Shown here in pieces: positions 40,016-59,962 of a stretch of DNA of 64,000 nucleotides. Below the pieces are notes generated by a model. The model worked only from the letters and a program-made list of their open reading frames with translations, searched no databases and was not told where the DNA came from. Within the stretch, counting starts at the first letter, position 1, and each line of letters begins with the position of its first letter. Source of the stretch: a phage. The translations under genes were made by a program, and so were the position numbers. The DNA lies in sequence record OZ335964.1, one strand, 5' to 3'.

Positions 40016-40414
40016 TTAAGCCAGTCGAGTGAGTTTATAAATTGTTTTAAAGCATAAAACTTTAATATCGTCTAAAACGCTCTGCAAAGAGCTATCAACA
40101 TCATTATAAATCTCACTAGCCATTTGCGTTAATTCCTGCAAATAGGCAATTTCGTTAATCTCCTTACGGACGACCAACGTTGGTTGATACCGACCAGTGA
40201 TCCCAATATTGGTTTCTGTGAAATTATCAACCAATTCTTGCATTTCAAGATAGAACTCTTCTAGAGCCTTATGTTTTGAATAAGACCCAGGTCCAGTTAC
40301 CCCAAAATGCGCAGAATGCATATAAGTAACGCTCATTAGGCATTCACCAATAAAGCGGTCTACTTTATTAGCTTTTCCTCCCTCGGAAGTCTGCCTAAAT
40401 TCACTGAATTTCAT
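40016..40414 (-). CDS. hypothetical protein, possible ferritin/Dps-like fold (start at internal Met)
   Basis: Segment YMHSAHFGVTGPGSYSKHKALEEFYLEMQELVDNF loosely resembles the Dps helix-A/B signature; weak. Confidence 0.3.
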   Translation of the reverse strand: MKFSEFRQTSEGGKANKVDRFIGECLMSVTYMHSAHFGVTGPGSYSKHKALEEFYLEMQELVDNFTETNIGITGRYQPTLVVRKEINEIAYLQELTQMASEIYNDVDSSLQSVLDDIKVLCFKTIYKLTRLA

Positions 40415-40700
40415 TATATCGATTCTCCATTTTATTAAGCACAATAAATTGATTTGCGGCATACTCTCCCATCATGAAACAATGTTTAGCATCCATACAT
40501 TTACTACGTGCGTATGTTTTCATTATGTGGTCATGAAATTTTTGACTTGTCTCCACCGATGGTTGTATTTTGTTTATATACACGATCATAGCACCGTCGA
40601 AGTAATCAGTAAAGTCACCAACAGGACACTGATCGGCACTTACGCTACCAACTGCCATAACGCATATACCCGCAACGAGTGTTTTACGAATAAATGACAT
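40401..40700 (-). CDS. rI: lysis-inhibition antiholin RI-like periplasmic protein
   Basis: 99 aa with N-terminal signal-anchor (LVAGICVMAVGSVSA); C-terminal ...QKFHDHIMKTYARSKCMDAKHCFMMGEYAANQF... parallels recalled T4 RI (...EQFYSFMRTTYKNDPCSSDFECIERGAEMAQSY...); adjacent to tk as in T4. Confidence 0.65.
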   Translation of the reverse strand: MSFIRKTLVAGICVMAVGSVSADQCPVGDFTDYFDGAMIVYINKIQPSVETSQKFHDHIMKTYARSKCMDAKHCFMMGEYAANQFIVLNKMENRYNEIQ

Positions 40701-40732: not shown

Positions 40733-40740
40733 TATTTATA
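40733..40740 (-). promoter_or_regulatory. late promoter TATAAATA upstream of rI
   Basis: Exact T4 late consensus on minus strand ~33 nt upstream of the rI ATG, inside the loop of a 9-bp inverted repeat (40711-40747). Confidence 0.5.
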
Positions 40741-40761: not shown

Positions 40762-41358
40762 TTAGTGGGTAGATCCATCAATAAAATGTTTACGACAAAC
40801 AGAAATATATTTATCTTCCGCACCAATTTCGATTTGAGCACCATCGCGAATAACATTACCATCTTTATCTACGCGAAGGACCATAGTTGCTTTCTTTCCA
40901 CAATGACAAATACCCTTCATTTCGACCAGTTTATCAGCAAATGCCATCAATGCCGCAGATCCTTCAAATAGATTGCCCTGAAAGTCGGTGCGAAGGCCAT
41001 AGCACAGTACAGGGATATTTGCATCATCAACAAGCGCACACAAGCCTAAAACATGCTCTTTAGTCATAAATTGGGCTTCATCTACAAATACAGCATCAGG
41101 ACGCCATCGATCCGATCTACGCTTACCTAGTGATTCACGATAAACTAAGTCGAAAAGATCATCCGATTTAGTGAACGTAATAGCCGGAGCACTTAGACCA
41201 ATTCGGGAAACAACTTCACTATCTGAATCACGATTATCAATCGCTGGTTTAAGAATTAATACTCGCATATCACGTTCGGTATAGTTATAAGCACTTTGTA
41301 ACAGGGAAGTTGATTTGCCAGCGTTCATAGATGCATAGTAGAAATATAGTTGCGCCAT
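40762..41358 (-). CDS. tk: thymidine kinase
   Basis: 198 aa; MAQLYFYYASMNAGKSTSLLQSAYNY... and ...PVLCYGLRTDFQG...ISVCRKHF near-identical in pattern to E. coli/T4 Tdk. Confidence 0.95.
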   Translation of the reverse strand: MAQLYFYYASMNAGKSTSLLQSAYNYTERDMRVLILKPAIDNRDSDSEVVSRIGLSAPAITFTKSDDLFDLVYRESLGKRRSDRWRPDAVFVDEAQFMTKEHVLGLCALVDDANIPVLCYGLRTDFQGNLFEGSAALMAFADKLVEMKGICHCGKKATMVLRVDKDGNVIRDGAQIEIGAEDKYISVCRKHFIDGSTH

Positions 41359-41651
41359 TAATTAATCTCCAAAAATCCAGCAAGACCTAAACCAACATAA
41401 ACCCAGATGCAAAGGAAAAAGAAGCAAACACCCATAGCAAAGATAAATCCGCGTAGTGTCTTTGGATAACCTACCCAATATTCCCGACCATCTTCTAACC
41501 GGATCAGTTTATTGCCTTGAGAGTCCATGTCAATCACAACATGCTTATTTCGAGATTGCAATAGATATTGTTTTACAATCTCTACACCCGCCATAATAAC
41601 AATAACGAAATTAAAAGTCCACATAACAAGGTTAATGATAGTCTCAAGCAT
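41358..41651 (-). CDS. small membrane protein (97 aa)
   Basis: Hydrophobic helices at both ends. Confidence 0.4.
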   Translation of the reverse strand: MLETIINLVMWTFNFVIVIMAGVEIVKQYLLQSRNKHVVIDMDSQGNKLIRLEDGREYWVGYPKTLRGFIFAMGVCFFFLCIWVYVGLGLAGFLEIN

Positions 41652-42513: not shown

Positions 42514-42873
42514 TTAGTCACGGGAAGACAACCCAGCCATAAAACGGCTTAAAAGCGTGTCACGATAAGCAAAGCATAATTGCTTATCAGGGGCAGTATC
42601 ACACAGGTTGCGTTTTGTTTTAGCAAAGCTGGCAATACTCAGATCCCACGCTCGATTTTTTCGTTTTTCATCTCGACCTTGTTTGTATGCCTCGTCAAGT
42701 TCAAGTGCGATAAAATCGCTACACATGTTATCATCATCACAGAAGGTTTTAATGATCTTTTTGTTGATCTCAAATCCTTTGTATTCGACCTTTGGATAAG
42801 GGCGCTCATTACTAGCAAGCGCACCAGCCGAGAACATCATAGCAATCATAGCAATTATTGTCAACTTTTTCAT
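42514..42873 (-). CDS. secreted/periplasmic protein (119 aa)
   Basis: N-terminal signal peptide MKKLTIIAMIAMMFSAGALA. Confidence 0.45.
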   Translation of the reverse strand: MKKLTIIAMIAMMFSAGALASNERPYPKVEYKGFEINKKIIKTFCDDDNMCSDFIALELDEAYKQGRDEKRKNRAWDLSIASFAKTKRNLCDTAPDKQLCFAYRDTLLSRFMAGLSSRD

Positions 42874-45578: not shown

Positions 45579-45612
45579 TAAAACGAAAAAGCCAACCCTT
45601 TTCGGATTGGCT
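45579..45612 (-). terminator. rho-independent terminator
   Basis: AGCCAAUCC-GAAAA-GGGUUGGCU followed by UUUUUCGUUUU on minus strand. Confidence 0.65.
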
Positions 45613-45622
45613 TGATGAAAAA

Positions 45623-46660: not shown

Positions 46661-46722
46661 GGTAAAGTCTCCAGTGAACGGGGAGAGATCCTTAGATTGT
46701 CTCCCCGTTGATGGTTAATATT

Positions 46723-47112
46723 TTATTTTGGATCTGGGTATTTGCTGTGTGGCAATTGTAGATGAGGACCATCTTTAAACGATACCCAATCCCCACCCCA
46801 TTCAACAGGAACACCCAATTCTCGACCAGCTTGTTTAAATGCATCAGCGATCATGCGGTAATATTTCATGTTCCATGTATCCTTATCTTTCGGATACGCT
46901 ACAACGTCAACCGCGAAACCGTGAAGATGACGAGATTTCATAGTCTTAGATTTACCTTCCGCAACATATTTCTTTTGCGTTTCTAGACTACGCACACCTT
47001 CCGTAATACCAAAATCGACCGGAGTCAGTTCTAATGCACGATGAACGACTTTTACCAGGTCTGGATGTACACCAACAAGCCGATCTTTGCTTCTTTGAGA
47101 TAATTTAAACAT
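46723..47112 (-). CDS. peptidase M15-family cell-wall hydrolase (candidate endolysin)
   Basis: 129 aa; SRHLHGFAVDV (His...Asp zinc ligands) and DGPHLQL (third His) as in L-Ala-D-Glu/D-Ala-D-Ala peptidases; occupies the position of lysozyme e in T4 gene order. Confidence 0.6.
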   Translation of the reverse strand: MFKLSQRSKDRLVGVHPDLVKVVHRALELTPVDFGITEGVRSLETQKKYVAEGKSKTMKSRHLHGFAVDVVAYPKDKDTWNMKYYRMIADAFKQAGRELGVPVEWGGDWVSFKDGPHLQLPHSKYPDPK

Positions 47113-47140
47113 TATTCACCCCCTTTGTGAGTGATAATAT

Positions 47141-47332
47141 TTAGATTCCAGTGATCCTGCATAGAGTTCTTGTATTAGCACCAATCAGGATCGCATTAAC
47201 GACAACCATTCCCCAATCAACCCACTGATTATTATAAATGCTAAACCCGTTTGCAAGACCAAATACAAGCATTCCGGTACACATACTCAGAGCAATAATC
47301 AACATCACGGTAAAACCAAATGCAAATCTCAT
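47141..47332 (-). CDS. small membrane protein (63 aa)
   Basis: Two TM helices. Confidence 0.4.
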   Translation of the reverse strand: MRFAFGFTVMLIIALSMCTGMLVFGLANGFSIYNNQWVDWGMVVVNAILIGANTRTLCRITGI

Positions 47333-47333
47333 A

Positions 47334-47600
47334 TTATTTTCCTTTTCTCTGTTTACGTTTATAAAAGTAATACATTACCTCATCGCGTCCGGTGATCCAA
47401 CATGCTAGGGCGGTAAACAGGTTTACAATTCCCAACACACCTACGGATGCGGCGCTGTCAACAGACATAGGAACAGTAAAGGCCATAGCTAACATAGCAA
47501 CGCCACAAATGACATTAAGCACCATTATAATAAGACCGAAGAAAACCATTGTCAATCCTCCCAAATAAGAAAACCAACAATCACGCCAGTGATAAGACAT
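47334..47600 (-). CDS. small membrane protein (88 aa)
   Basis: Multiple TM helices; basic C-terminus KRKQRKGK. Confidence 0.4.
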   Translation of the reverse strand: MSYHWRDCWFSYLGGLTMVFFGLIIMVLNVICGVAMLAMAFTVPMSVDSAASVGVLGIVNLFTALACWITGRDEVMYYFYKRKQRKGK

Positions 47601-47743
47601 GATGCGCCGCTAATCAGACAACCCGCGCCAAGTGATTCCCACCAGATCAGAGAAGCGACAATAACGCAAATTCCCCAGACTACCGCAATCACAACATAGG
47701 CAATGGTCGCCAAAAACATATATTTGTTCATAATAAATCCCAT
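47552..47743 (-). CDS. small membrane protein (63 aa)
   Basis: Two TM helices. Confidence 0.4.
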   Translation of the reverse strand: MGFIMNKYMFLATIAYVVIAVVWGICVIVASLIWWESLGAGCLISGASCLITGVIVGFLIWED

Positions 47744-47916
47744 TCACCAAACAAATAAGAAAAAAGCCATATCAACAGAAACGAGGCAATTGATCCGGCA
47801 AGCAAAATGATATTAGAGAATCCACCGTTTATCCAGTTGACAAAACAGAATACGCCAGTATAGAAGCATAAACCCATTACAAAGCATACTATAAGCAACC
47901 ATAGATAAAACGCCAT
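47728..47916 (-). CDS. small membrane protein (62 aa)
   Basis: Two TM helices. Confidence 0.4.
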   Translation of the reverse strand: MAFYLWLLIVCFVMGLCFYTGVFCFVNWINGGFSNIILLAGSIASFLLIWLFSYLFGEWDLL

Positions 47917-48138
47917 AGAAAGCCCTCCAGCGAGATAAATTAGTGCGGGTAGGGGAATGTACTACCCGCTTTGTTAATCAACGCAGGGCTTGTTCTAGCG
48001 CGATCCCAAACCATCCACAAACAACGCCCATACAGACAGCTACAAGAAGATTCATTCTCTCTTTAGGGATCATTGCAATCATAACAACAACCATACAGAA
48101 AGCCATTACCATTGAAGTTAACATTTGTTCAACCATTA

Positions 48139-48477
48139 TCACACCTTTAAAGTCATAGACGCATAAACATTAACACCAGGCCAGTTAGGATCGCAATTAT
48201 ACTCAACATCCCACAAATAAAGCGGTTTAGATGTATCAGCCAAGTTTTTAAAATCTTCTACCCACATTTCAATGCTATATGATGGATAAACTAGGCTGTC
48301 ATATCCTCCGTAACGTTGGCCTACTGGTCGGTCAGTAAAAACTACCTCAAGATCCGGTAATTCTTTTTCAAGGATAACCGCCAGCGCATAAATCAGACGG
48401 TCTTCCTTGTTACGCTGCCGAAGGACCGTTGTCAGTTGGCTTTTCTGGTTCACTAGCAAGCACCTCCACATTTTCAC
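48139..48477 (-). CDS. hypothetical protein (112 aa)
   Basis: Co-oriented ORF. Confidence 0.4.
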   Translation of the reverse strand: MKMWRCLLVNQKSQLTTVLRQRNKEDRLIYALAVILEKELPDLEVVFTDRPVGQRYGGYDSLVYPSYSIEMWVEDFKNLADTSKPLYLWDVEYNCDPNWPGVNVYASMTLKV

Positions 48478-48730
48478 AGAATGAAATTTTCACAGACACA
48501 ATTTTACCATAAGTGAAGAATGAATATACATTATCGAGATATTCAACGTCACCTACAATCACATCAAACTGCGGATCAGCAACCGCCGCAACATATTCTA
48601 CCAGTTCATCAAGAGAATGCAACTTAATTTCATCAATTCGGCTGTATTTGGTTGCATCTTTGATTTTAAAACCACGTTCTTTCAGCTTATCAATTAGAAT
48701 TTCACGCGGAGTTTCAAACAGTTTGCTCAT
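48410..48730 (-). CDS. hypothetical protein (106 aa)
   Basis: Co-oriented ORF with GAGGATTATACT-ATG leader. Confidence 0.4.
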   Translation of the reverse strand: MSKLFETPREILIDKLKERGFKIKDATKYSRIDEIKLHSLDELVEYVAAVADPQFDVIVGDVEYLDNVYSFFTYGKIVSVKISFCENVEVLASEPEKPTDNGPSAA

Positions 48731-48752
48731 AGTATAATCCTCACATAGTTAA

Positions 48753-48947
48753 TCAATGGTCAATAATCTTGCACATTATAACAGAAAGAACAAAGACCGC
48801 AACCCACATATAGATCCCAGCAATCAATGCAATTTCAATATCACAATATCCAAGATATACAACAGGAATAAAAACAAACATACAGACCAGCGCAAAGAAA
48901 CTAGCAAAGGCGCTAGAAAATCCGATAGCAGTATTAGTAATATTCAT
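48753..48947 (-). CDS. small membrane protein (64 aa)
   Basis: Two TM helices. Confidence 0.4.
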   Translation of the reverse strand: MNITNTAIGFSSAFASFFALVCMFVFIPVVYLGYCDIEIALIAGIYMWVAVFVLSVIMCKIIDH

Positions 48948-48948
48948 A

Positions 48949-49131
48949 TTAACAATCCTCGCGGCTTAAGTCAACAGCAATTGCATACAGCATAATGAAT
49001 ATGCTAGCCGATCCGAGAATCAATACACCCTCACATTTTGAAACTCGCTCATCAAAATGTAACATTATCCAACCGAGGATGTTAAAGGCGCAGACCGCGC
49101 CTATGTTCGCTAACCAATTAATCTTTTTCAT
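48949..49131 (-). CDS. small membrane protein (60 aa)
   Basis: Two TM helices. Confidence 0.4.
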   Translation of the reverse strand: MKKINWLANIGAVCAFNILGWIMLHFDERVSKCEGVLILGSASIFIMLYAIAVDLSREDC

Positions 49132-49139
49132 AATATACC

Positions 49140-49466
49140 TTAGAAAGAAACAGTTTTCAAGAAATCCAGATTTTTAGTACCGAAAACAGAAAAGTAGTGT
49201 TTTCCTTTTTCGGTTTTAGAGAAAGCGATTGTCTTCTCTACATGGTGACGGAAGCCAGACAGACGATCACCCAGGTCAAGGCGGCAAGCGTAAGTAGTGC
49301 CGTTTTCGAAAGTAACCTCGATTTGAGTTTTGTCATATTCGCTTTCATAGGCTTTTGCTGCCGCGTCCTGTGCTTTACGCTCGAAGTCTTCGAAGTGGAA
49401 TACTTCGTTTGCGTTAGCGAATACAGAAGATTCAGAGAAGATAACTTTAACAGATACTGGTTTCAT
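49140..49466 (-). CDS. hypothetical protein (108 aa)
   Basis: Downstream of promoter cassette 49467-49545. Confidence 0.45.
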   Translation of the reverse strand: MKPVSVKVIFSESSVFANANEVFHFEDFERKAQDAAAKAYESEYDKTQIEVTFENGTTYACRLDLGDRLSGFRHHVEKTIAFSKTEKGKHYFSVFGTKNLDFLKTVSF

Positions 49467-49545
49467 TTTGATACTCCTTAGTAGTTCGTGTTTCGTTTCG
49501 ATGGGTGTATTATGCTATACACCCTCTCGCGTGTCAACAACTTTT
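49467..49545 (-). promoter_or_regulatory. early promoter-hairpin-leader cassette (PeSL-like)
   Basis: TTGACA - 17 nt - CATAAT inside GGGUGUA/UACACCC hairpin - leader CAUCGAAACGAAACACGAAC - AAGGAGTATCAAA-ATG. Confidence 0.65.
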
Positions 49546-49734
49546 TTAGTCTTTTTTCATAATTTCTAGAGCAGTTTCTACAGCACCTTTCCAACCTTCC
49601 CACATAATGGACATAGTAAGGAAGTTAAAGCACCCGCAGGAATCAACCTTTTTAGAGATAAACCATTCTACAAACGCTTCGCTCATACCATGCTCTTTAG
49701 CGGATTCGCGTAATTGTTCAATTTGGTCTTCCAT
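49546..49734 (-). CDS. hypothetical protein (62 aa)
   Basis: Co-oriented ORF. Confidence 0.35.
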   Translation of the reverse strand: MEDQIEQLRESAKEHGMSEAFVEWFISKKVDSCGCFNFLTMSIMWEGWKGAVETALEIMKKD

Positions 49735-49756
49735 AGTATCACCTCAACACTTAACG

Positions 49757-49951
49757 TTATTCAAACTCAAACGGTCTATTCAACCTATTGTAAAAGTACA
49801 TATAACAAGCAAAATTATGCTTTGGCTGTACCGTATCAGATAGACACGCTTTTACAGCCTCGCGGTCCGATGGGTCTACACCCTCAGCTTTAAGTAATGC
49901 TAAAATCTGGTTATAGCGTACTCTTAGTTGTACTAATGGTTTATCCCCCAT
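49757..49951 (-). CDS. hypothetical protein (64 aa)
   Basis: Co-oriented ORF. Confidence 0.35.
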   Translation of the reverse strand: MGDKPLVQLRVRYNQILALLKAEGVDPSDREAVKACLSDTVQPKHNFACYMYFYNRLNRPFEFE

Positions 49952-49960
49952 ATTACCCCC

Positions 49961-50188
49961 TTATAGTTGATCAGCAATGTATGCGGTGCATTTGCGGAGT
50001 TTAGCCATAGCACCACCTTTCATGTCGCTTGCGCCTACAATGTTCATGATCTCTAAGCGATCAGCCGGATTCAGTCTAGTAGCCCAGATCTGGTTAGCCA
50101 GTTCCATTTTACCCATCTGCGGTTCCATCTCAAACATTTCACGCTCAAAGTCGATAATTTCTTTTGCTGCGTCTTTAAAGTTAATCAT
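49961..50188 (-). CDS. hypothetical protein (75 aa)
   Basis: Downstream of promoter cassette 50189-50248. Confidence 0.4.
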   Translation of the reverse strand: MINFKDAAKEIIDFEREMFEMEPQMGKMELANQIWATRLNPADRLEIMNIVGASDMKGGAMAKLRKCTAYIADQL

Positions 50189-50248
50189 TTTGGTCCTCCC
50201 GTTTCGTTGATGGTTGTATTGTAGGGGAGTTATCCTCCCCTGTCAACA
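50189..50248 (-). promoter_or_regulatory. early promoter-hairpin-leader cassette (PeSL-like)
   Basis: TTGACA - GGGGAGgauaaCUCCCC (17-nt spacer hairpin) - TACAAT - leader - GGGAGGACCAAA-ATG. Confidence 0.6.
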
Positions 50249-50254
50249 CTTTTA

Positions 50255-50440
50255 TCAGAAATATGCAATATAGTTTGCCAGTCCTACAGAGTCATCATTC
50301 GGCATTGCTTTTACCGCCAGTTCAAACCCTGCTTCAACTTTCTGTTTAGCGGATTCTTCGTTATAACCCCAGATGACCAGAATAGCTACTACGTTTTCTT
50401 TGCTTACTGCTTTCAGTGCTTTAGTGATGCGACGTGCCAT
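50255..50440 (-). CDS. hypothetical protein (61 aa)
   Basis: Downstream of promoter cassette 50441-50517. Confidence 0.4.
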   Translation of the reverse strand: MARRITKALKAVSKENVVAILVIWGYNEESAKQKVEAGFELAVKAMPNDDSVGLANYIAYF

Positions 50441-50517
50441 AATTTGATTCTCCGTTTAAGAAAGTGTGTTTCGTTTCGATGGGTGTATTATGCTATAGGC
50501 GTGATCTGGTGTCAACA
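50441..50517 (-). promoter_or_regulatory. early promoter-hairpin-leader cassette (PeSL-like)
   Basis: TTGACA - ~17 nt - CATAAT/ATAATA - leader CAUCGAAACGAAACACAC - GGAGAATCAAA-ATG. Confidence 0.6.
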
Positions 50518-50540
50518 ACTTTTTTAAAAAATTTTAGGCA

Positions 50541-50569
50541 ATAAAAAAGCCACTCCGAAGAGTGGCTTA
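50541..50569 (-). terminator. rho-independent terminator
   Basis: AGCCACUC-UUCG-GAGUGGCU followed by UUUUUUAUU on minus strand. Confidence 0.6.
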
Positions 50570-50575
50570 TAGGGA

Positions 50576-50716
50576 AGGTAGCGAATCTTCCTTGTCTCCA
50601 ACCTGCTAGCGGCCTAGCAAGTGAATGCTTTAGCGTACCGGATCACCCCATACGCTGCAATAAATGCGGCTAGGTGACGTCCAAATCATTCTAACCGCGC
50701 TGTCTTTAGTTCACTA
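50576..50716 (-). ncRNA. candidate small structured RNA (ORF-free 140-nt interval)
   Basis: No ORF on either strand; several compact hairpins (GGAAG...CUUCC; GCUAG-gccg-CUAGC; GCGUA...UACGC; GCGGUUAG...CUAGCCGC); a terminator lies just downstream on the minus strand; T4 carries tRNAs/small stable RNAs at the syntenic e-57B interval. No tRNA T-loop signature found. Confidence 0.3.
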
Positions 50717-50935
50717 TTATTTATATCGCTTTCTCTCGCGACGTTTTTGATCTTCTTCCTTGATAGAGTTAAATGCATCAAAAAGACACATGACACTGAT
50801 AATGAACATAACCGTATTTTCTACGATATCCCACGGCTTCGCATCAGTACAGATCCCCCAAACGGTAAGAAATGCAAATAGTGCAGAAGAGATCACAAGC
50901 ATGATACTTGCTAAGATATAAAAAGTCATTTTCAT
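50717..50935 (-). CDS. small membrane protein (72 aa)
   Basis: Two TM helices, basic C-terminus. Confidence 0.4.
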   Translation of the reverse strand: MKMTFYILASIMLVISSALFAFLTVWGICTDAKPWDIVENTVMFIISVMCLFDAFNSIKEEDQKRRERKRYK

Positions 50936-51126
50936 GGTTTTACCTCAATTCTTCGATATTCATCACACATCCACGCAGTAAGCAAGAATCCCAGCACATA
51001 AGCAACAAAATACGTTAATGCTTCTTCTGGTTCTGTGCTGTGTATCATCATTAAACCAGCTAGAACGGTCTTAACAATTACATTTAAAATAATTAGCCAC
51101 GCAAATAATTTCATCGTTTGCCCCAT
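50932..51126 (-). CDS. small membrane protein (64 aa)
   Basis: Two TM helices. Confidence 0.4.
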   Translation of the reverse strand: MGQTMKLFAWLIILNVIVKTVLAGLMMIHSTEPEEALTYFVAYVLGFLLTAWMCDEYRRIEVKP

Positions 51127-51350
51127 TTCGGTCGAGTCTTTTCAAACTTATACATTCCGTAACAATCTCGAATCATCCACGTAACAAGAGCACCAGTCAA
51201 CACAGACAATACACAGAAGAAGTAAAACGGTCCGGTTGCATTATCAACATGAGCAAGCCAGGTAAAGAAAACACATGCTAAGAATGTGAAGAACATCATA
51301 AAACACAAGAAAGCAAAATATTTTATGCTACTCATAGCGCCACCATACAA
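51111..51350 (-). CDS. small membrane protein (79 aa)
   Basis: Two TM helices. Confidence 0.4.
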   Translation of the reverse strand: MYGGAMSSIKYFAFLCFMMFFTFLACVFFTWLAHVDNATGPFYFFCVLSVLTGALVTWMIRDCYGMYKFEKTRPKWGKR

Positions 51351-51438
51351 CAGATCATAAGAAACCCCAACGCAATAAGAATTGCATCAAATTTAGTGAA
51401 CTCAGGTCCACCTATCAACATCATTCGTTCCTGTTCAT

Positions 51439-51681
51439 TCATAGATCACAGAGCCATCTTAAAGCACCACATAAAGCGAGCAGAATACTAGGTATAAAAG
51501 AGACCAAAACAAGTTCGCAAAAATCATCTAAGGTAACACCGGAATAGCTACCTACTGTAACAACACCGATCATCAGACACAGAAAGAAAACAAATGCAAT
51601 CAGAAACAAAGTATTGCTAAACAGTTTAGTGATCATTAGACACCCCACGACGATCAATTTCAAAAACTTTTTTATCATCAA
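51439..51681 (-). CDS. small membrane protein (80 aa)
   Basis: Three hydrophobic stretches. Confidence 0.4.
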   Translation of the reverse strand: MMIKKFLKLIVVGCLMITKLFSNTLFLIAFVFFLCLMIGVVTVGSYSGVTLDDFCELVLVSFIPSILLALCGALRWLCDL

Positions 51682-51829
51682 CGAAGCATGTCACAACTGC
51701 CTCGTTGACTTCCGCAAATTGTTGTGTTACCCACTTAAGGTCAGATCGAAACAATGTTTTGTTAATAACAAATGTTTTACCGCTCTTATCCTTACCCATA
51801 AATTTTGCTTTAACCATATCCAATTCCAT
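51626..51829 (-). CDS. hypothetical protein (67 aa)
   Basis: Co-oriented ORF. Confidence 0.35.
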   Translation of the reverse strand: MELDMVKAKFMGKDKSGKTFVINKTLFRSDLKWVTQQFAEVNEAVVTCFVDDKKVFEIDRRGVSNDH

Positions 51830-51838
51830 ATTATCACC

Positions 51839-51997
51839 TTATTTGCTAATCGCTAAACCCAATCCGAAGAGAGCACCCGATGCTACAGTATACCCGAAAG
51901 TTTCAAATGCAGTAAAGATATCTAAGCCACCAGCTAACAGAGTTGCAGTAAACAGAGTACCAGCTACGAACATAAAAGTTTTACCGATAAATTTCAT
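51839..51997 (-). CDS. small membrane protein (52 aa; below ORF-track cutoff)
   Basis: Reverse translation MKFIGKTFMFVAGTLFTATLLAGGLDIFTAFETFGYTVASGALFGLGLAISK; immediately preceded by conserved SD and promoter cassette. Confidence 0.4.
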   Translation of the reverse strand: MKFIGKTFMFVAGTLFTATLLAGGLDIFTAFETFGYTVASGALFGLGLAISK

Positions 51998-58162: not shown

Positions 58163-59962
58163 ATGCTAATGTTTAATAACTCCGTTAAATGGTTTACCGG
58201 AATTGTAGAAAACAGGGAAGACCCATTAATGCTGGGGCGCGTTCAGGTTAGGATTCATGGTATACATCCTTCGCTATCCGCACACGGTGACATTCAAGGT
58301 CTTCCAACCGAAGATCTATTATGGATTACGCCAGTACAAGATATTACAAGTGCGGCGATCTCCGGTATAGGTCAAAGCCCTACTGGTATTGTTGAAGGTT
58401 CAATGGTATTTGGTTTGGCTTTAGATGAACGTTATTTAAACTGCGTTATTCTTGGTACTATTGCCGGACAATATACAGAGAAACCACTCACGACAGAAGG
58501 TTTTTGTGACCCTTCTGGTGCATATCCTCGTTATATTGGTAATGATGTTAATATTCTTGCTCGTGGCGGTATTAACCCAGAAACCGGACAAACAACAAAA
58601 CCTGATAGTGTCTATATTCGAGATGAAAACACTGGAGTTGCCGTAAATCCAGACGACGAGCCATTAGACCAAATTCCGGTTGATGATAATCCTGATTTTA
58701 CAATAGAAAAAATGCTGCGGGGCGATGAGGGATATCGCGAGAAATGGTATCTTGATTCAGAAGGATATCCGACAATAGGCATCGGGCATTTGATCATTTA
58801 TAAGAAAACCAGTGATCTTGGTATTATCAATAATGAACTTTCTAAGCTGGTAGGGCGTGAAGTTACAAACGGAAGACTTACAGCCGAAGAAGTTAGTAAA
58901 GTATTTGCTGACGATATAGAAAAGACTCGTCGTGATATGCGCAAACATCCACGAATTGCACCTGTCTATAATAAATGTAATGCCTCACGTCGTATGGCAT
59001 TAGAAAATATGGCGTTTCAAATGGGTGTTGGTGGATTGGGTAAATTTAAGAATAGTCTTGCTGCGATGTTAGCGGAAGAATGGAAACAAGCCTATGATGG
59101 ATTACGTCAATCTGTATGGGCTAATCAAACTCCAGGACGCTCCAGCCGTGTTTCTAAAATTATTTTAACTGGTAACTTAGAATCATATGGCGTAATTGCT
59201 CCAAAGAAAGAGGAATCAATTTCGGATGATCCGCGAGCACGTTTAAGAAATGCCCGTATTGCTGCCTATAAGACACAGAGAGCAGAAGAAGACCCAGAAG
59301 CACCGTTTACCCCACAAGACACACGAATCATGTTTAAAGAGCCTAAGAGTTCGTATTCTGCAAGGTATCCTTATAACCATGTGTACGAGTCAGAGAGCGG
59401 TCATATTATCGAGATTGATGATACTCCTTCTCATGAGCGATATCATCGTAAACATCCTTCTGGTACATTTGAAGAAACCAGACCGGACGGAACGAGGGTA
59501 GAAAAGATTGAAGGTGATGATTATCTAATCGTTAAACAAGGCCGTAAAGTAAACGTTAAGGGTAATTTGCAAGTTGTTGTTGAAGGTGACGCGCAAGTTT
59601 ATTATATGGGTAATGTGATGCAAACCGTTGATGGTAACGTCACTGAATTTATTCGTGGCAATGTTAATCAGACCGTTGAAGGTACTGCTAACATGCATGT
59701 TGTCGGTGATGTTATCGCACAGCTTGACGCTAATTTGACGGCTAATGTCAAGGGTAATGCTGAATTAATGATCGAGGGTAACACTACAGAGACAATTAAA
59801 GGTAACTATGATTTAACCGTTGAGGGTAATTTTAATATGACCGTCAATGGCACTAAATCAGATCAGGTTAATGGTGACTGGTCCCGTAATTGTGGTGCAA
59901 GCGTTAAAGATATTGCATCTGGTACAGTTAAAATTGATGGTAGCCGTATTGATCTTGGGTGA
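58163..59962 (+). CDS. 5: baseplate hub/cell-puncturing protein gp5 with lysozyme domain
   Basis: N-terminal OB region, lysozyme domain YLDSEGYPTIGIGHLI and ENMAFQMGVGG (T4: WDTEGYPTIGIGHLI; ENMAFQMGVGG), C-terminal beta-helix repeats VxGNxxxx, ending DGSRIDLG (T4: DGSRIDIG). Confidence 0.95.
   Translation: MLMFNNSVKWFTGIVENREDPLMLGRVQVRIHGIHPSLSAHGDIQGLPTEDLLWITPVQDITSAAISGIGQSPTGIVEGSMVFGLALDERYLNCVILGTIAGQYTEKPLTTEGFCDPSGAYPRYIGNDVNILARGGINPETGQTTKPDSVYIRDENTGVAVNPDDEPLDQIPVDDNPDFTIEKMLRGDEGYREKWYLDSEGYPTIGIGHLIIYKKTSDLGIINNELSKLVGREVTNGRLTAEEVSKVFADDIEKTRRDMRKHPRIAPVYNKCNASRRMALENMAFQMGVGGLGKFKNSLAAMLAEEWKQAYDGLRQSVWANQTPGRSSRVSKIILTGNLESYGVIAPKKEESISDDPRARLRNARIAAYKTQRAEEDPEAPFTPQDTRIMFKEPKSSYSARYPYNHVYESESGHIIEIDDTPSHERYHRKHPSGTFEETRPDGTRVEKIEGDDYLIVKQGRKVNVKGNLQVVVEGDAQVYYMGNVMQTVDGNVTEFIRGNVNQTVEGTANMHVVGDVIAQLDANLTANVKGNAELMIEGNTTETIKGNYDLTVEGNFNMTVNGTKSDQVNGDWSRNCGASVKDIASGTVKIDGSRIDLG

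Follow-up and report, generated by a model that had tools for sequence, protein, structure and literature searches.

A known RB49-type endolysin at the T4 lysozyme position, preceded by genus-specific genes for small membrane proteins

The locus described here is, with good probability, a known RB49-type endolysin gene preceded by unrelated, genus-specific genes for small membrane proteins. It lies in a window of 64,000 nucleotides, by which we mean the whole stretch of DNA analysed, and the source phage is a Krischvirus, an RB49/Phi1/JSE-like T4-type coliphage. The main finding adds nothing new, as the enzyme has been studied and RB49-type phages lacking gene e have been published; the small ORFs, too, had already been reported as predicted membrane proteins (Nolan et al. 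2006). A new detail for the RB49-type endolysin is a hairpin at its translation start, which encloses a candidate late promoter, TCTAAATA.

The peptidase gene and the four small ORFs that the original prediction placed between 46723 and 47916 are all present there, on the minus strand. The peptidase gene and the structure that follows it are:

46723..47112, minus strand: endolysin gene, encoding a 129-aa M15C L-alanyl-D-glutamate peptidase, orthologue of EndoRB49
46677..46709, minus strand: hairpin without a U-tract, directly 3' of the endolysin stop codon, read from sequence and fold and invariant in 10 genomes

Judged by its translation, the peptidase is an allele of EndoRB49, the enzyme with which RB49-like phages cut the cell wall and which has already been purified and crystallised. 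It aligns over its full length with two PDB entries, differing at one residue from 23ri (128/129 identical) and by four substitutions from 8q2g, which is EndoRB49 (RB49 ORF102, NP_891673; 125/129 identical). Length, genomic position and catalytic motifs are the same as in EndoRB49, and it is this form, 97% identical to the window protein, that has been characterised biochemically. Profile searches identify a Peptidase_M15_4 domain (Pfam PF13539, E 2.2e-11, 44.6 bits with a cutoff of 25) and a match to PHROG 465, 'endolysin' (E 2e-68), which is also how the gene is annotated in relatives. The translation contains both SRHLHGFAVD and DGPHLQL, and from it we read the zinc-ligand/catalytic motif SxHxxGxAxD as S60-R-H62-L-H-G65-F-A67-V-D69 and the second motif, DxxH, as D114-G-P-H117, together with W109. 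EndoRB49 cleaves L-Ala-D-Glu (PMC8140593; Mikoulinskaia 2018 as cited there), and W109 has been named for it as a conserved tryptophan near the active site (PMC10487532). Comparison of Krischvirus genomes gives a pN/pS of 0.07 for the peptidase, in which we found no signal peptide, SAR domain or TM segment (no 19-residue Kyte-Doolittle window with a mean >=1.6). Enzymes of the EndoRB49 type are thermostable and of biotechnological interest.

The peptidase is also related to the T5 endolysin (2mxz, E 1e-20) and to Serratia ChiX (5opz), both of the same M15C fold family. EndoT5 (T5 lys; PDB 2mxz/8p3a) cuts the same bond as EndoRB49, but it is regulated by Ca2+ via a loop that is absent from EndoRB49. 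Both T5 lys and chiX are described as adjoining holin-like genes.

According to the original prediction, the window holds no T4-lysozyme-like ORF besides gp5, and the peptidase, at the syntenic position of T4 gene e, was suggested to be a non-orthologous endolysin replacement. These statements are borne out, the M15 replacement of the T4 lysozyme at the e slot being real but already known: gene e is absent from RB49 and phi-1 in a published listing. The only stretch of the window matched by T4 e (NC_000866) is the following:

58703..59188, plus strand: lysozyme domain of the gp5 baseplate protein, found by tblastn with T4 e (43% identity, E 8e-37)

In the related JSE genome (~99.4% covered), gene 5 is again the sole match of T4 e. 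Checked against the T4 record, the order vs.6-vs.7-vs.8-denV-ipII-ipIII-e-nudE corresponds to vs.6-(41 aa)-vs.8-M15 in the window, with the peptidase gene adjoining vs.8 in the e slot.

The start of the endolysin gene carries two overlapping elements:

47102..47147, minus strand: RNA hairpin over the endolysin translation-initiation region, dG -12.5 kcal/mol, z -3.97
47138..47145, minus strand: TCTAAATA, candidate late promoter in the 5' arm of the hairpin, a 7/8 match to the T4 late promoter TATAAATA

The 3' arm of the hairpin contains or adjoins both the Shine-Dalgarno GGGGG (47123-47119) and the AUG (47112-47110). The hairpin was equalled in stability by 0 of 200 shuffles and is invariant among 10 Krischvirus genomes. 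In L016-19, a lineage 87% identical to this one, 37/37 nt agree, and the stem is longer owing to a 1-nt deletion and an A>G change (-18.2, z -6.2). The T4 e hairpin, refolded as a control, gave -14.9 (z -4.5), and comparable start-site hairpins occur at the M15 endolysins of Bragavirus, Slopekvirus and Pseudotevenvirus.

The octamer TCTAAATA precedes the endolysin ATG by 25 nt and is present as a single copy in the 64-kb window; genome-wide in JSE, two of its three copies are found 25-35 nt upstream of ORFs, namely those of the endolysin and the gp37 distal tail fibre, which is a modest signal (P ~0.02). The site was not called by the late-promoter model of Nolan 2006, and the C that it has at -12 is rare in late promoters outside Aeh1 (Nolan 2006). 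Modelled transcripts beginning 5-8 nt past TCTAAATA lose the hairpin, with folds of -3.8 to -5.1 kcal/mol. From its sequence and position, we infer that TCTAAATA may act as the late promoter of the endolysin.

Endolysin expression would then probably follow the logic of T4 gene e. Early promoters further upstream would give rise to long transcripts that include the endolysin gene, with its Shine-Dalgarno and AUG hidden by the hairpin; transcripts started at TCTAAATA would be unable to form the hairpin, and the endolysin would be translated late. T4 gene e likewise belongs to an early read-through unit and has a hairpin that hides the Shine-Dalgarno and AUG, with a late octamer in the 5' arm (McPheeters 1986; reviewed in PMC3014915). 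The two cases differ in that the genes are non-orthologous and that the octamer is TCTAAATA instead of TATAAATA, in one copy instead of two; moreover, late transcripts of T4 e escape the hairpin, whereas for the window endolysin escape is suggested by modelled folds. A non-orthologous endolysin appears to keep or re-create the control logic of gene e, that is, a start-site hairpin whose 5' arm holds a late promoter. If this were confirmed, the regulatory architecture of the slot would have been selected more strongly than the identity of the enzyme.

Upstream of the endolysin lie four small genes, here called tmA to tmD, and a further hairpin:

47141..47332, minus strand: tmA (RB49 ORF103c), 63 aa; PHROG 15016, a family of unknown function
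47334..47549, minus strand: tmB (RB49 ORF104c), 71 aa and not 88; Shine-Dalgarno GGGAGGA; PHROG 15232
47552..47731, minus strand: tmC (RB49 ORF105c), 59 aa, two TM segments; PHROG 16151
47728..47916, minus strand: tmD (RB49 ORF106c), 62 aa, two TM segments; Shine-Dalgarno GGAGGG; PHROG 19354
47945..47969, minus strand: GC-rich hairpin GCGGGTAG...CTACCCGC between tmE and tmD, read from sequence and fold

The longest ORFs as first listed were 47141-47332, 47334-47600, 47552-47743 and 47728-47916, two of which are over-extended; the true starts were chosen by Shine-Dalgarno sequences, PHROG profiles and all annotated relatives. The four tandem ORFs announced at 60-90 aa do exist, with true sizes of 62, 59, 71 and 63 aa, but they are not a special quartet; they are the proximal members of a series of ~12 small hydrophobic ORFs that extends from 47141 to 51997. 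The two TM segments claimed for each correspond to two hydrophobic segments per ORF, the second one of tmA lying below the Kyte-Doolittle threshold used; in RB49 ORF103c, this second segment was predicted to be transmembrane (Nolan et al. 2006). The start codon of tmC overlaps the stop codon of tmD (ATGA). The C-terminal tail is weakly basic in tmA and basic in tmB (RDEVMYYFYKRKQRKGK, 7 K/R), whose two TM segments and tail resemble the layout of small holins with a basic tail; tmC has an acidic C-terminus and 1 basic residue, and tmD has an acidic tail and no Lys or Arg. As for the hairpin at 47945..47969, it is conserved in L016-19; the annotation of phage G2494 gives it as a putative terminator, whereas TransTerm did not call it in RB49. 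It may be a weak terminator or serve to stabilise the transcript.

Comparison of sequences indicates that tmA-D are genuine genes, specific to the genus and under purifying selection. In tblastn searches of 50,697 phage records, tmA, tmB (96-100% identity) and tmC (83-97% identity) were each found in 59/59 Krischvirus records and tmD in 58, and none of the four had a phage match outside Krischvirus. Their adjacency to the endolysin is invariable and the coupling tight. Of the 10 genomes compared, 9-10 have each reading frame intact, and pN/pS within the genus ranges from 0.09 to 0.53, tmB being the most constrained of the four (0.09), followed by tmA (0.25) and tmC (0.26), and tmD the least (0.53). 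Against the lineage 87% identical in nucleotides, the range is 0.13-0.35, with 0.13 for tmA. In phage Whisky, tmD is frameshifted or fused to tmC, and in ECD7 it is split. The idea that these ORFs are chance hydrophobic frames in an AT-rich spacer, devoid of function, would fit their shortness, their lack of homologues beyond one genus and the absence of domain matches. It is nevertheless highly improbable in view of these pN/pS values, of the intact frames, and of the suitable Shine-Dalgarno sequences and overlapping start/stop codons.

An exhaustive phmmer search with tmB among 1.84 billion representatives returned one real relative, with 80% identity and conserved gene order; two further matches were dismissed, one being a repetitive 285-aa protein and the other a 67-aa chimera sharing the N-terminus only. 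Searches of Pfam, PHROGs, NCBIfam and PADLOC linked none of the four proteins to a holin, antiholin or defence family: in Pfam there was no match whatsoever, the Antiholin family PF24205 included, and in PHROGs each forms its own single-genus family of unknown function. We rejected the idea that the 12 small TM ORFs are paralogues of one another (best z 3.9 over 91 pairs, not significant) and, in the same 91-pair comparison, that they resemble the P88 holin or S21.

The original prediction also proposed that the small proteins might be dedicated holin, antiholin or immunity partners of the peptidase. This proposal is not supported, given the T holin and spanins of JSE, the RI of the window and the lack of any holin-family match. 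The antiholin locus of the window comprises:

40401..40700, minus strand: rI, T4-type antiholin (Pfam PF24205 Antiholin, E 1.1e-20)
40740-40733, minus strand: TATAAATA, late promoter of rI, exact octamer

The close relative JSE has a Phage_holin_T protein at the position of T4 t (E 1.6e-60), and its pseT.3/pseT.2 are annotated as spanins, both holin and spanins being observed in JSE and not in the window's own genome; the T4 spanin family includes RB49, JSE and Phi1. Most likely, the M15 endolysin would reach the wall through a T-type holin under the control of RI, and spanins of the pseT.3/pseT.2 type would complete lysis. An immunity protein would be unneeded, because the endolysin is cytoplasmic and has no signal sequence. 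We conclude that tmA-D probably do not serve the peptidase as holin, antiholin or immunity partners.

A lysis role nonetheless keeps some room because of the adjacency to the endolysin, the architecture of tmB and the holin-endolysin order of P88-like phages. The four genes could be a lysis-control module for the M15 endolysin, in which a class II holin or pinholin (tmB, for example) would act with antiholins or modulators, the whole having been acquired with the endolysin or having evolved beside it. Endolysin adjacency is strict and packing tight in 58-59 of the 59 genomes, as also in the divergent lineage, each protein has two TM segments, and tmB combines a strongly basic tail, as in class II holins, with a pN/pS of 0.09. 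Outside Krischvirus, the closest relatives of the endolysin (63% identical) are those of P88-like phages (Xuanwuvirus), and these lie directly behind a holin: a 107-aa holin/antiholin gene of a late operon overlaps the endolysin start. That holin/antiholin gene has no similarity to tmA-D. We regard a lysis-control module as unlikely. T, RI and spanins already form a complete set; no holin family, P88 holin or S21 resembles the four proteins; no late promoter precedes tmD; and the hairpin insulates the endolysin start from upstream transcripts. Furthermore, both tmC and tmD end in acidic tails and contain 0-1 basic residues, the divergent lineage no longer has the Met-x-Lys-x-Met motif of tmC, viable phages exist in which tmD is frameshifted, and the upstream neighbours of M15 endolysins in Bragavirus and Slopekvirus are soluble.

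Slightly less probable still is that tmA-D assemble in the inner membrane into a complex peculiar to Krischvirus and active in lysis, for instance as a second pinholin- or antiholin-like timer placed over T/RI and tuned to the M15 enzyme. Were this true, they would constitute a new family of lysis regulators without sequence relatives. Two candidates were discarded separately: a dual-start holin motif in tmC (MNKYM), the second Met of which is not conserved in L016-19, and a conserved linkage of TM genes with M15 endolysins in other T4-like genera, which is absent in Bragavirus and Slopekvirus.

To return to the favoured reading, of an endolysin with unrelated neighbours, the transcription unit is delimited by two signals:

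49509..49537, minus strand: sigma-70-type early promoter TTGACA-17-CATAAT in an intergenic gap, 11/12 match
45589..45613, minus strand: intrinsic terminator after vs.6, a 10-bp stem and T-run, which closes the transcription unit

Published predictions and the promoter scan performed here assign the tmA-D unit to sigma-70-type early promoters. The promoter at 49509..49537 is the nearest strong one upstream, matches RB49 Pe:57746 (Nolan 2006) by coordinate offset, and is the likely source of read-through transcripts over tmG...tmA and the endolysin; between this site and the endolysin, no early promoter is predicted. A sigma-70-like site at the tmC/tmB junction (47555-47527) was considered as a possible further promoter: it matches at 11/12 positions, but is intragenic, reads TTGAAA in L016 and was uncalled by Nolan 2006. 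The terminator equals 'nrdC.11<--vs.6' of the RB49 TransTerm predictions. Exact copies of TATAAATA occur three times in the 64-kb window, at 40740, 50725 and 57557, none of them directly upstream of the endolysin or tmD, and the copy at 50725-50718 could provide late read-through across the membrane genes. We found no transcript or protein data for any Krischvirus. The signals present in the DNA suggest that the membrane genes are expressed early. The tmA-D proteins would probably be made from early read-through transcripts and inserted in the inner membrane, possibly as a complex, and their role, by analogy with other small membrane proteins that T4-type phages make early, would most likely be an accessory one, in host-membrane takeover or in the exclusion of superinfecting phages.

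It is possible, if doubtful, that tmA-D are superinfection-exclusion or host-membrane takeover factors in the strict sense, that is, analogues of T4 Imm/Sp acting early and independently of lysis; this reading is a specific form of the accessory role. The unit is of the early type, with sigma-70-like promoters; the Shine-Dalgarno sequences of tmD and tmB are of the GGAG type, the motif that RegB cuts in T4 early mRNAs; and the novel ORFs seem to be co-expressed with early genes (Nolan 2006). Distribution restricted to the genus is typical of the plastic periphery, and the four genes sit within a 12-member block of small TM ORFs. Against it, there is no match to exclusion or defence families, and the class is assigned by analogy only. 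T4 Imm and small early inner-membrane proteins resemble tmA-D in size, two-TM architecture and plastic early location, but show no detectable sequence relationship to them. The four orphan genes and the 12-gene block represent small, defined and testable unknowns in phages used for therapy. In T4 itself, e.2-e.4 are likewise hydrophobic.

The locus most likely combines a known, late-gated endolysin, released by a T/RI/spanin system, with an unrelated early block of small membrane proteins. The endolysin would be gated much as T4 gene e is, and the neighbouring block would consist of genus-specific inner-membrane proteins of probably accessory function. The features concerned are the following.

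Endolysin and adjacent small membrane ORFs in the window
46723-47112, minus strand: M15 endolysin, 129 aa
47147-47102: hairpin (46 nt) over the endolysin start site
47141-47332, minus strand: tmA, 63 aa
47334-47549, minus strand: tmB, 71 aa
47552-47731, minus strand: tmC, 59 aa
47728-47916, minus strand: tmD, 62 aa

The peptidase is a known enzyme. It matches Pfam Peptidase_M15_4 and PHROG endolysin family 465, carries the M15 signature S60-x-H62-x-x-G65-x-A67-x-D69 together with D114-x-x-H117 and W109, and is identical at 128 of 129 positions to PDB 23ri and at 125 of 129 to 8q2g ('peptidoglycan L-alanyl-D-glutamate endopeptidase'); Serratia ChiX (5opz) and the T5 endolysin (2mxz) are homologous to it. 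Its orthologue EndoRB49 was first characterised by Mikoulinskaia et al. (2018, J Gen Virol 99:402). As it contains no hydrophobic segment, the window protein is a cytoplasmic, holin-dependent endolysin. A 3-kb piece around the locus shares 95-99% identity with 59 phage records, every one a Krischvirus (RB49, Phi1, JSE, GEC-3S and relatives), in which this ORF is labelled endolysin or L-alanyl-D-glutamate peptidase. The annotated order in JSE and W115 is rI, tk, tk.4, vs, vs.1, regB, nrdC.11, vs.6, vs.8, endolysin, then a long row of small hypothetical or 'putative membrane' proteins, then dmd, 57B, 57A, 1 and 3. Metagenome contigs of up to 175 kb (L016-L019) represent a Krischvirus-like lineage with the same local gene order and about 87% nucleotide identity over the locus, which makes it more distant than each of the 59 records.

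All ORFs described in the original prediction exist at the locus, and its proposal of a non-orthologous endolysin replacement is borne out by the e slot and the M15 identity: the replacement is real, and already established knowledge. As it had stated, the window holds no T4-lysozyme-like ORF apart from the gp5 domain, the only match to T4 e (NC_000866) being at 58703-59188; the search for an e homologue elsewhere in the genome, which it had proposed, was run on four JSE loci (about 99.4% of that genome) and returned gene 5 alone. The T4 record reads vs.6-vs.7-vs.8-denV-ipII-ipIII-e-nudE-e.2...57B, which places the M15 gene in the e slot, without denV, ipII and ipIII. Uzan and Miller (2010) likewise reported no apparent gene e in RB49, phi-1, RB43 and RB16. 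An M15 relative occupies the same neighbourhood in Bragavirus, adjoining nudix, denV, regB and vs, and others are present in Slopekvirus and Pseudotevenvirus. The nearest relatives outside Krischvirus (about 60-64% identity) are endolysins from small phages; in the one case examined, a P88-like Xuanwuvirus, holin and endolysin genes form a classical cassette, in that order. In JSE (L001:6724-7299) and Whisky (L011:924-1499), an HNH-AP2 homing endonuclease gene lies between endolysin and vs.8, an insertion not present in the window at about 46661-46722. The final ~39 nt of the endolysin gene diverge in these two phages (the BLAST alignment ends at nt 351 of 390), the pattern that co-conversion during homing should produce.

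Late gating is suggested by the hairpin at the endolysin start, which pairs both the Shine-Dalgarno GGGGG and the AUG (-12.5 kcal/mol, z -3.97; none of 200 shuffles as stable). The segment is unchanged in ten genomes. In the divergent lineage it is identical over 37/37 nt, versus 83-92% in flanking genes; it differs only by a 1-nt deletion and an A-to-G substitution, which lengthen the stem (-18.2 kcal/mol, z -6.2). The 5' arm holds TCTAAATA, which agrees with the T4 late promoter at 7 of 8 positions, lies 25 nt from the ATG and is present once in the window. The exact octamer TATAAATA has 13 copies in JSE, of which 12 precede an ORF by 20-42 nt. Two of the three JSE copies of TCTAAATA are so positioned, before the endolysin and, at L006:37566(+), 35 nt upstream of a gp37-like distal tail-fibre gene (background rate 0.09, P about 0.02). 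The tail-fibre copy suggests that a late promoter with C at -12 works in this genus; Nolan 2006 describe such a C as rare outside Aeh1. Away from promoters, late-promoter octamers seem to be avoided, with 3 copies of TATAAATA in the window versus 6.0 expected and 1 of TCTAAATA versus 4.2. Transcripts started 5-8 nt downstream of TCTAAATA fold at just -3.8 to -5.1 kcal/mol. TCTAAATA is a candidate late promoter for the endolysin. Given the hairpin, translation of the endolysin is probably not coupled to that of the TM genes even when they share a transcript.

The layout is the one documented for T4 gene e, which has a late promoter in the 5' arm of a start-site hairpin; refolded as a control (L020:8486-8540, minus strand), its hairpin gave -14.9 kcal/mol and z -4.5. 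Significant hairpins also cover the M15 endolysin starts of three other T4-like genera, with late-promoter-like octamers in or before the 5' arm as in T4 e. The 2010 review of the gene-e mechanism (Uzan and Miller) left these phages out because they have no gene e.

Start-site hairpins of M15 endolysin genes in other T4-like genera
Bragavirus phiP4-3, L004:2960-3016: AATAAATA overlaps 5' arm, AUG in stem; -15.8 kcal/mol, z -7.1
Slopekvirus phi_KPN_S3, L005:2938-3012: SD AAGAGG pairs with CCUCUU, which lies upstream of a CATAAATA octamer; -24.9 kcal/mol, z -5.0
Pseudotevenvirus GAP161, L021:2434-2515: SD pairing as in Slopekvirus, CGTAAATA octamer; -25.5 kcal/mol, z -4.2

The four predicted membrane ORFs are real, with two hydrophobic segments each, but two of them had been over-extended as longest ORFs; we set start sites by Shine-Dalgarno positions, the extent of the PHROG profiles and the annotation of all annotated relatives. 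Nolan et al. (2006) had already assigned two TM segments to RB49 ORF103c, 104c and 106c and to nine ORFs next to them. The genes are tightly packed: tmD and tmC share ATGA, and the following gaps are 2 nt (tmC-tmB), 1 nt (tmB-tmA) and 28 nt (tmA-endolysin). Pooled pN/pS in ten Krischvirus genomes is 0.07 for the endolysin, 0.09 for tmB, 0.25 for tmA, 0.26 for tmC, 0.53 for tmD and 0.22 for the further ORF tmE; against the 87%-identical lineage it is 0.13-0.35 for all five genes of the shared order (tmA-D and the endolysin). By tblastn, tmA, tmB and tmC occur in 59/59 Krischvirus records and tmD in 58/59, and none was found outside the genus among the 50,697 phage records. An exhaustive phmmer search of 1.84 billion representative proteins with tmB returned one true relative (80% identity), on metagenomic contigs with the identical order 62-59-71-63-129(M15)-vs.8-vs.6. 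Selection and distribution thus identify tmA-D as real, genus-restricted orphan genes. In Whisky a frameshift fuses tmD to tmC (L011:2432-2737), and in ECD7 tmD is split; viable phages can therefore do without tmD or accept changes in it, in agreement with its pN/pS.

These ORFs had been proposed as holin, antiholin or immunity partners of the endolysin, a reading that is not supported and that we consider unlikely. Leaving the four ORFs aside, the canonical lysis set is already complete: the tail-fibre genes of JSE are closely followed by a gene for a 218-aa Phage_holin_T protein (E 1.6e-60), and JSE also has pseT.3/pseT.2, annotated as spanins, RB49, JSE and Phi1 being assigned to the T4 spanin family by Kongari et al.; the window encodes an RI-family antiholin at 40401-40700 (E 1.1e-20), with TATAAATA in front. 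Nor do tmA-D match Pfam, NCBIfam or PADLOC, and they are not detectably similar to one another, to the other eight small TM ORFs (47978-51997), to the P88 holin or to S21. The adjacency is itself genus-specific, since the ORFs directly upstream of the M15 endolysin in Bragavirus and Slopekvirus encode soluble proteins.

Expression signals point instead to early co-transcription of the TM genes, a reading drawn from sequence only because our literature search found no Krischvirus transcriptome. The strongest upstream promoter-like sites are intergenic and of sigma-70 type, at 49537, 50246 and 50515, and coincide by coordinate offset with RB49 early promoters Pe:57746, Pe:58430 and Pe:58699 (Nolan 2006). 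In the predictions of the same study, early promoters are absent from Pe:57746 down to the endolysin, the region has no late promoter, and the only strong terminator follows vs.6. The Shine-Dalgarno sequences of tmD and tmB contain GGAG, the motif cut by RegB in T4 early messages (Uzan and Miller 2010). A near-consensus sigma-70 site (TTGACA-17-TATTAT; 47555-47527, minus strand) spans the tmC stop and tmB start and could be an own promoter for tmB and tmA; the divergent lineage has TTGAAA here, and the RB49 promoter predictions of Nolan 2006 do not include the site.

The four ORFs are merely the proximal members of a block of about 12 ORFs of 52-79 aa (47141-51997, minus strand), each with two hydrophobic segments and no detectable similarity among themselves, packed into less than 5 kb between endolysin and dmd. 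By architecture, one of these, tmH (50717-50935, minus strand; 72 aa, two TM segments), resembles a holin more than any of tmA-D, with an MKM start of lambda-S-like dual-start appearance and a very basic C-terminal tail (KEEDQKRRERKRYK). An exact TATAAATA at 50725-50718 overlaps its stop codon, and a strong terminator (50568-50547) follows about 150 nt beyond. T4 e.2, e.3 and e.4, upstream of nudE and e (L020 9153-10194, minus strand), also have strongly hydrophobic segments, so that membrane-protein genes near the e slot are not peculiar to Krischvirus. Finally, two minus-strand ORFs lacking a Pfam match, one of 119 aa with a signal-peptide-like N-terminus and several Cys (42514-42873) and one of 97 aa just upstream of tk with hydrophobic segments at both termini (41358-41651), are candidates for a periplasmic or membrane function near rI.
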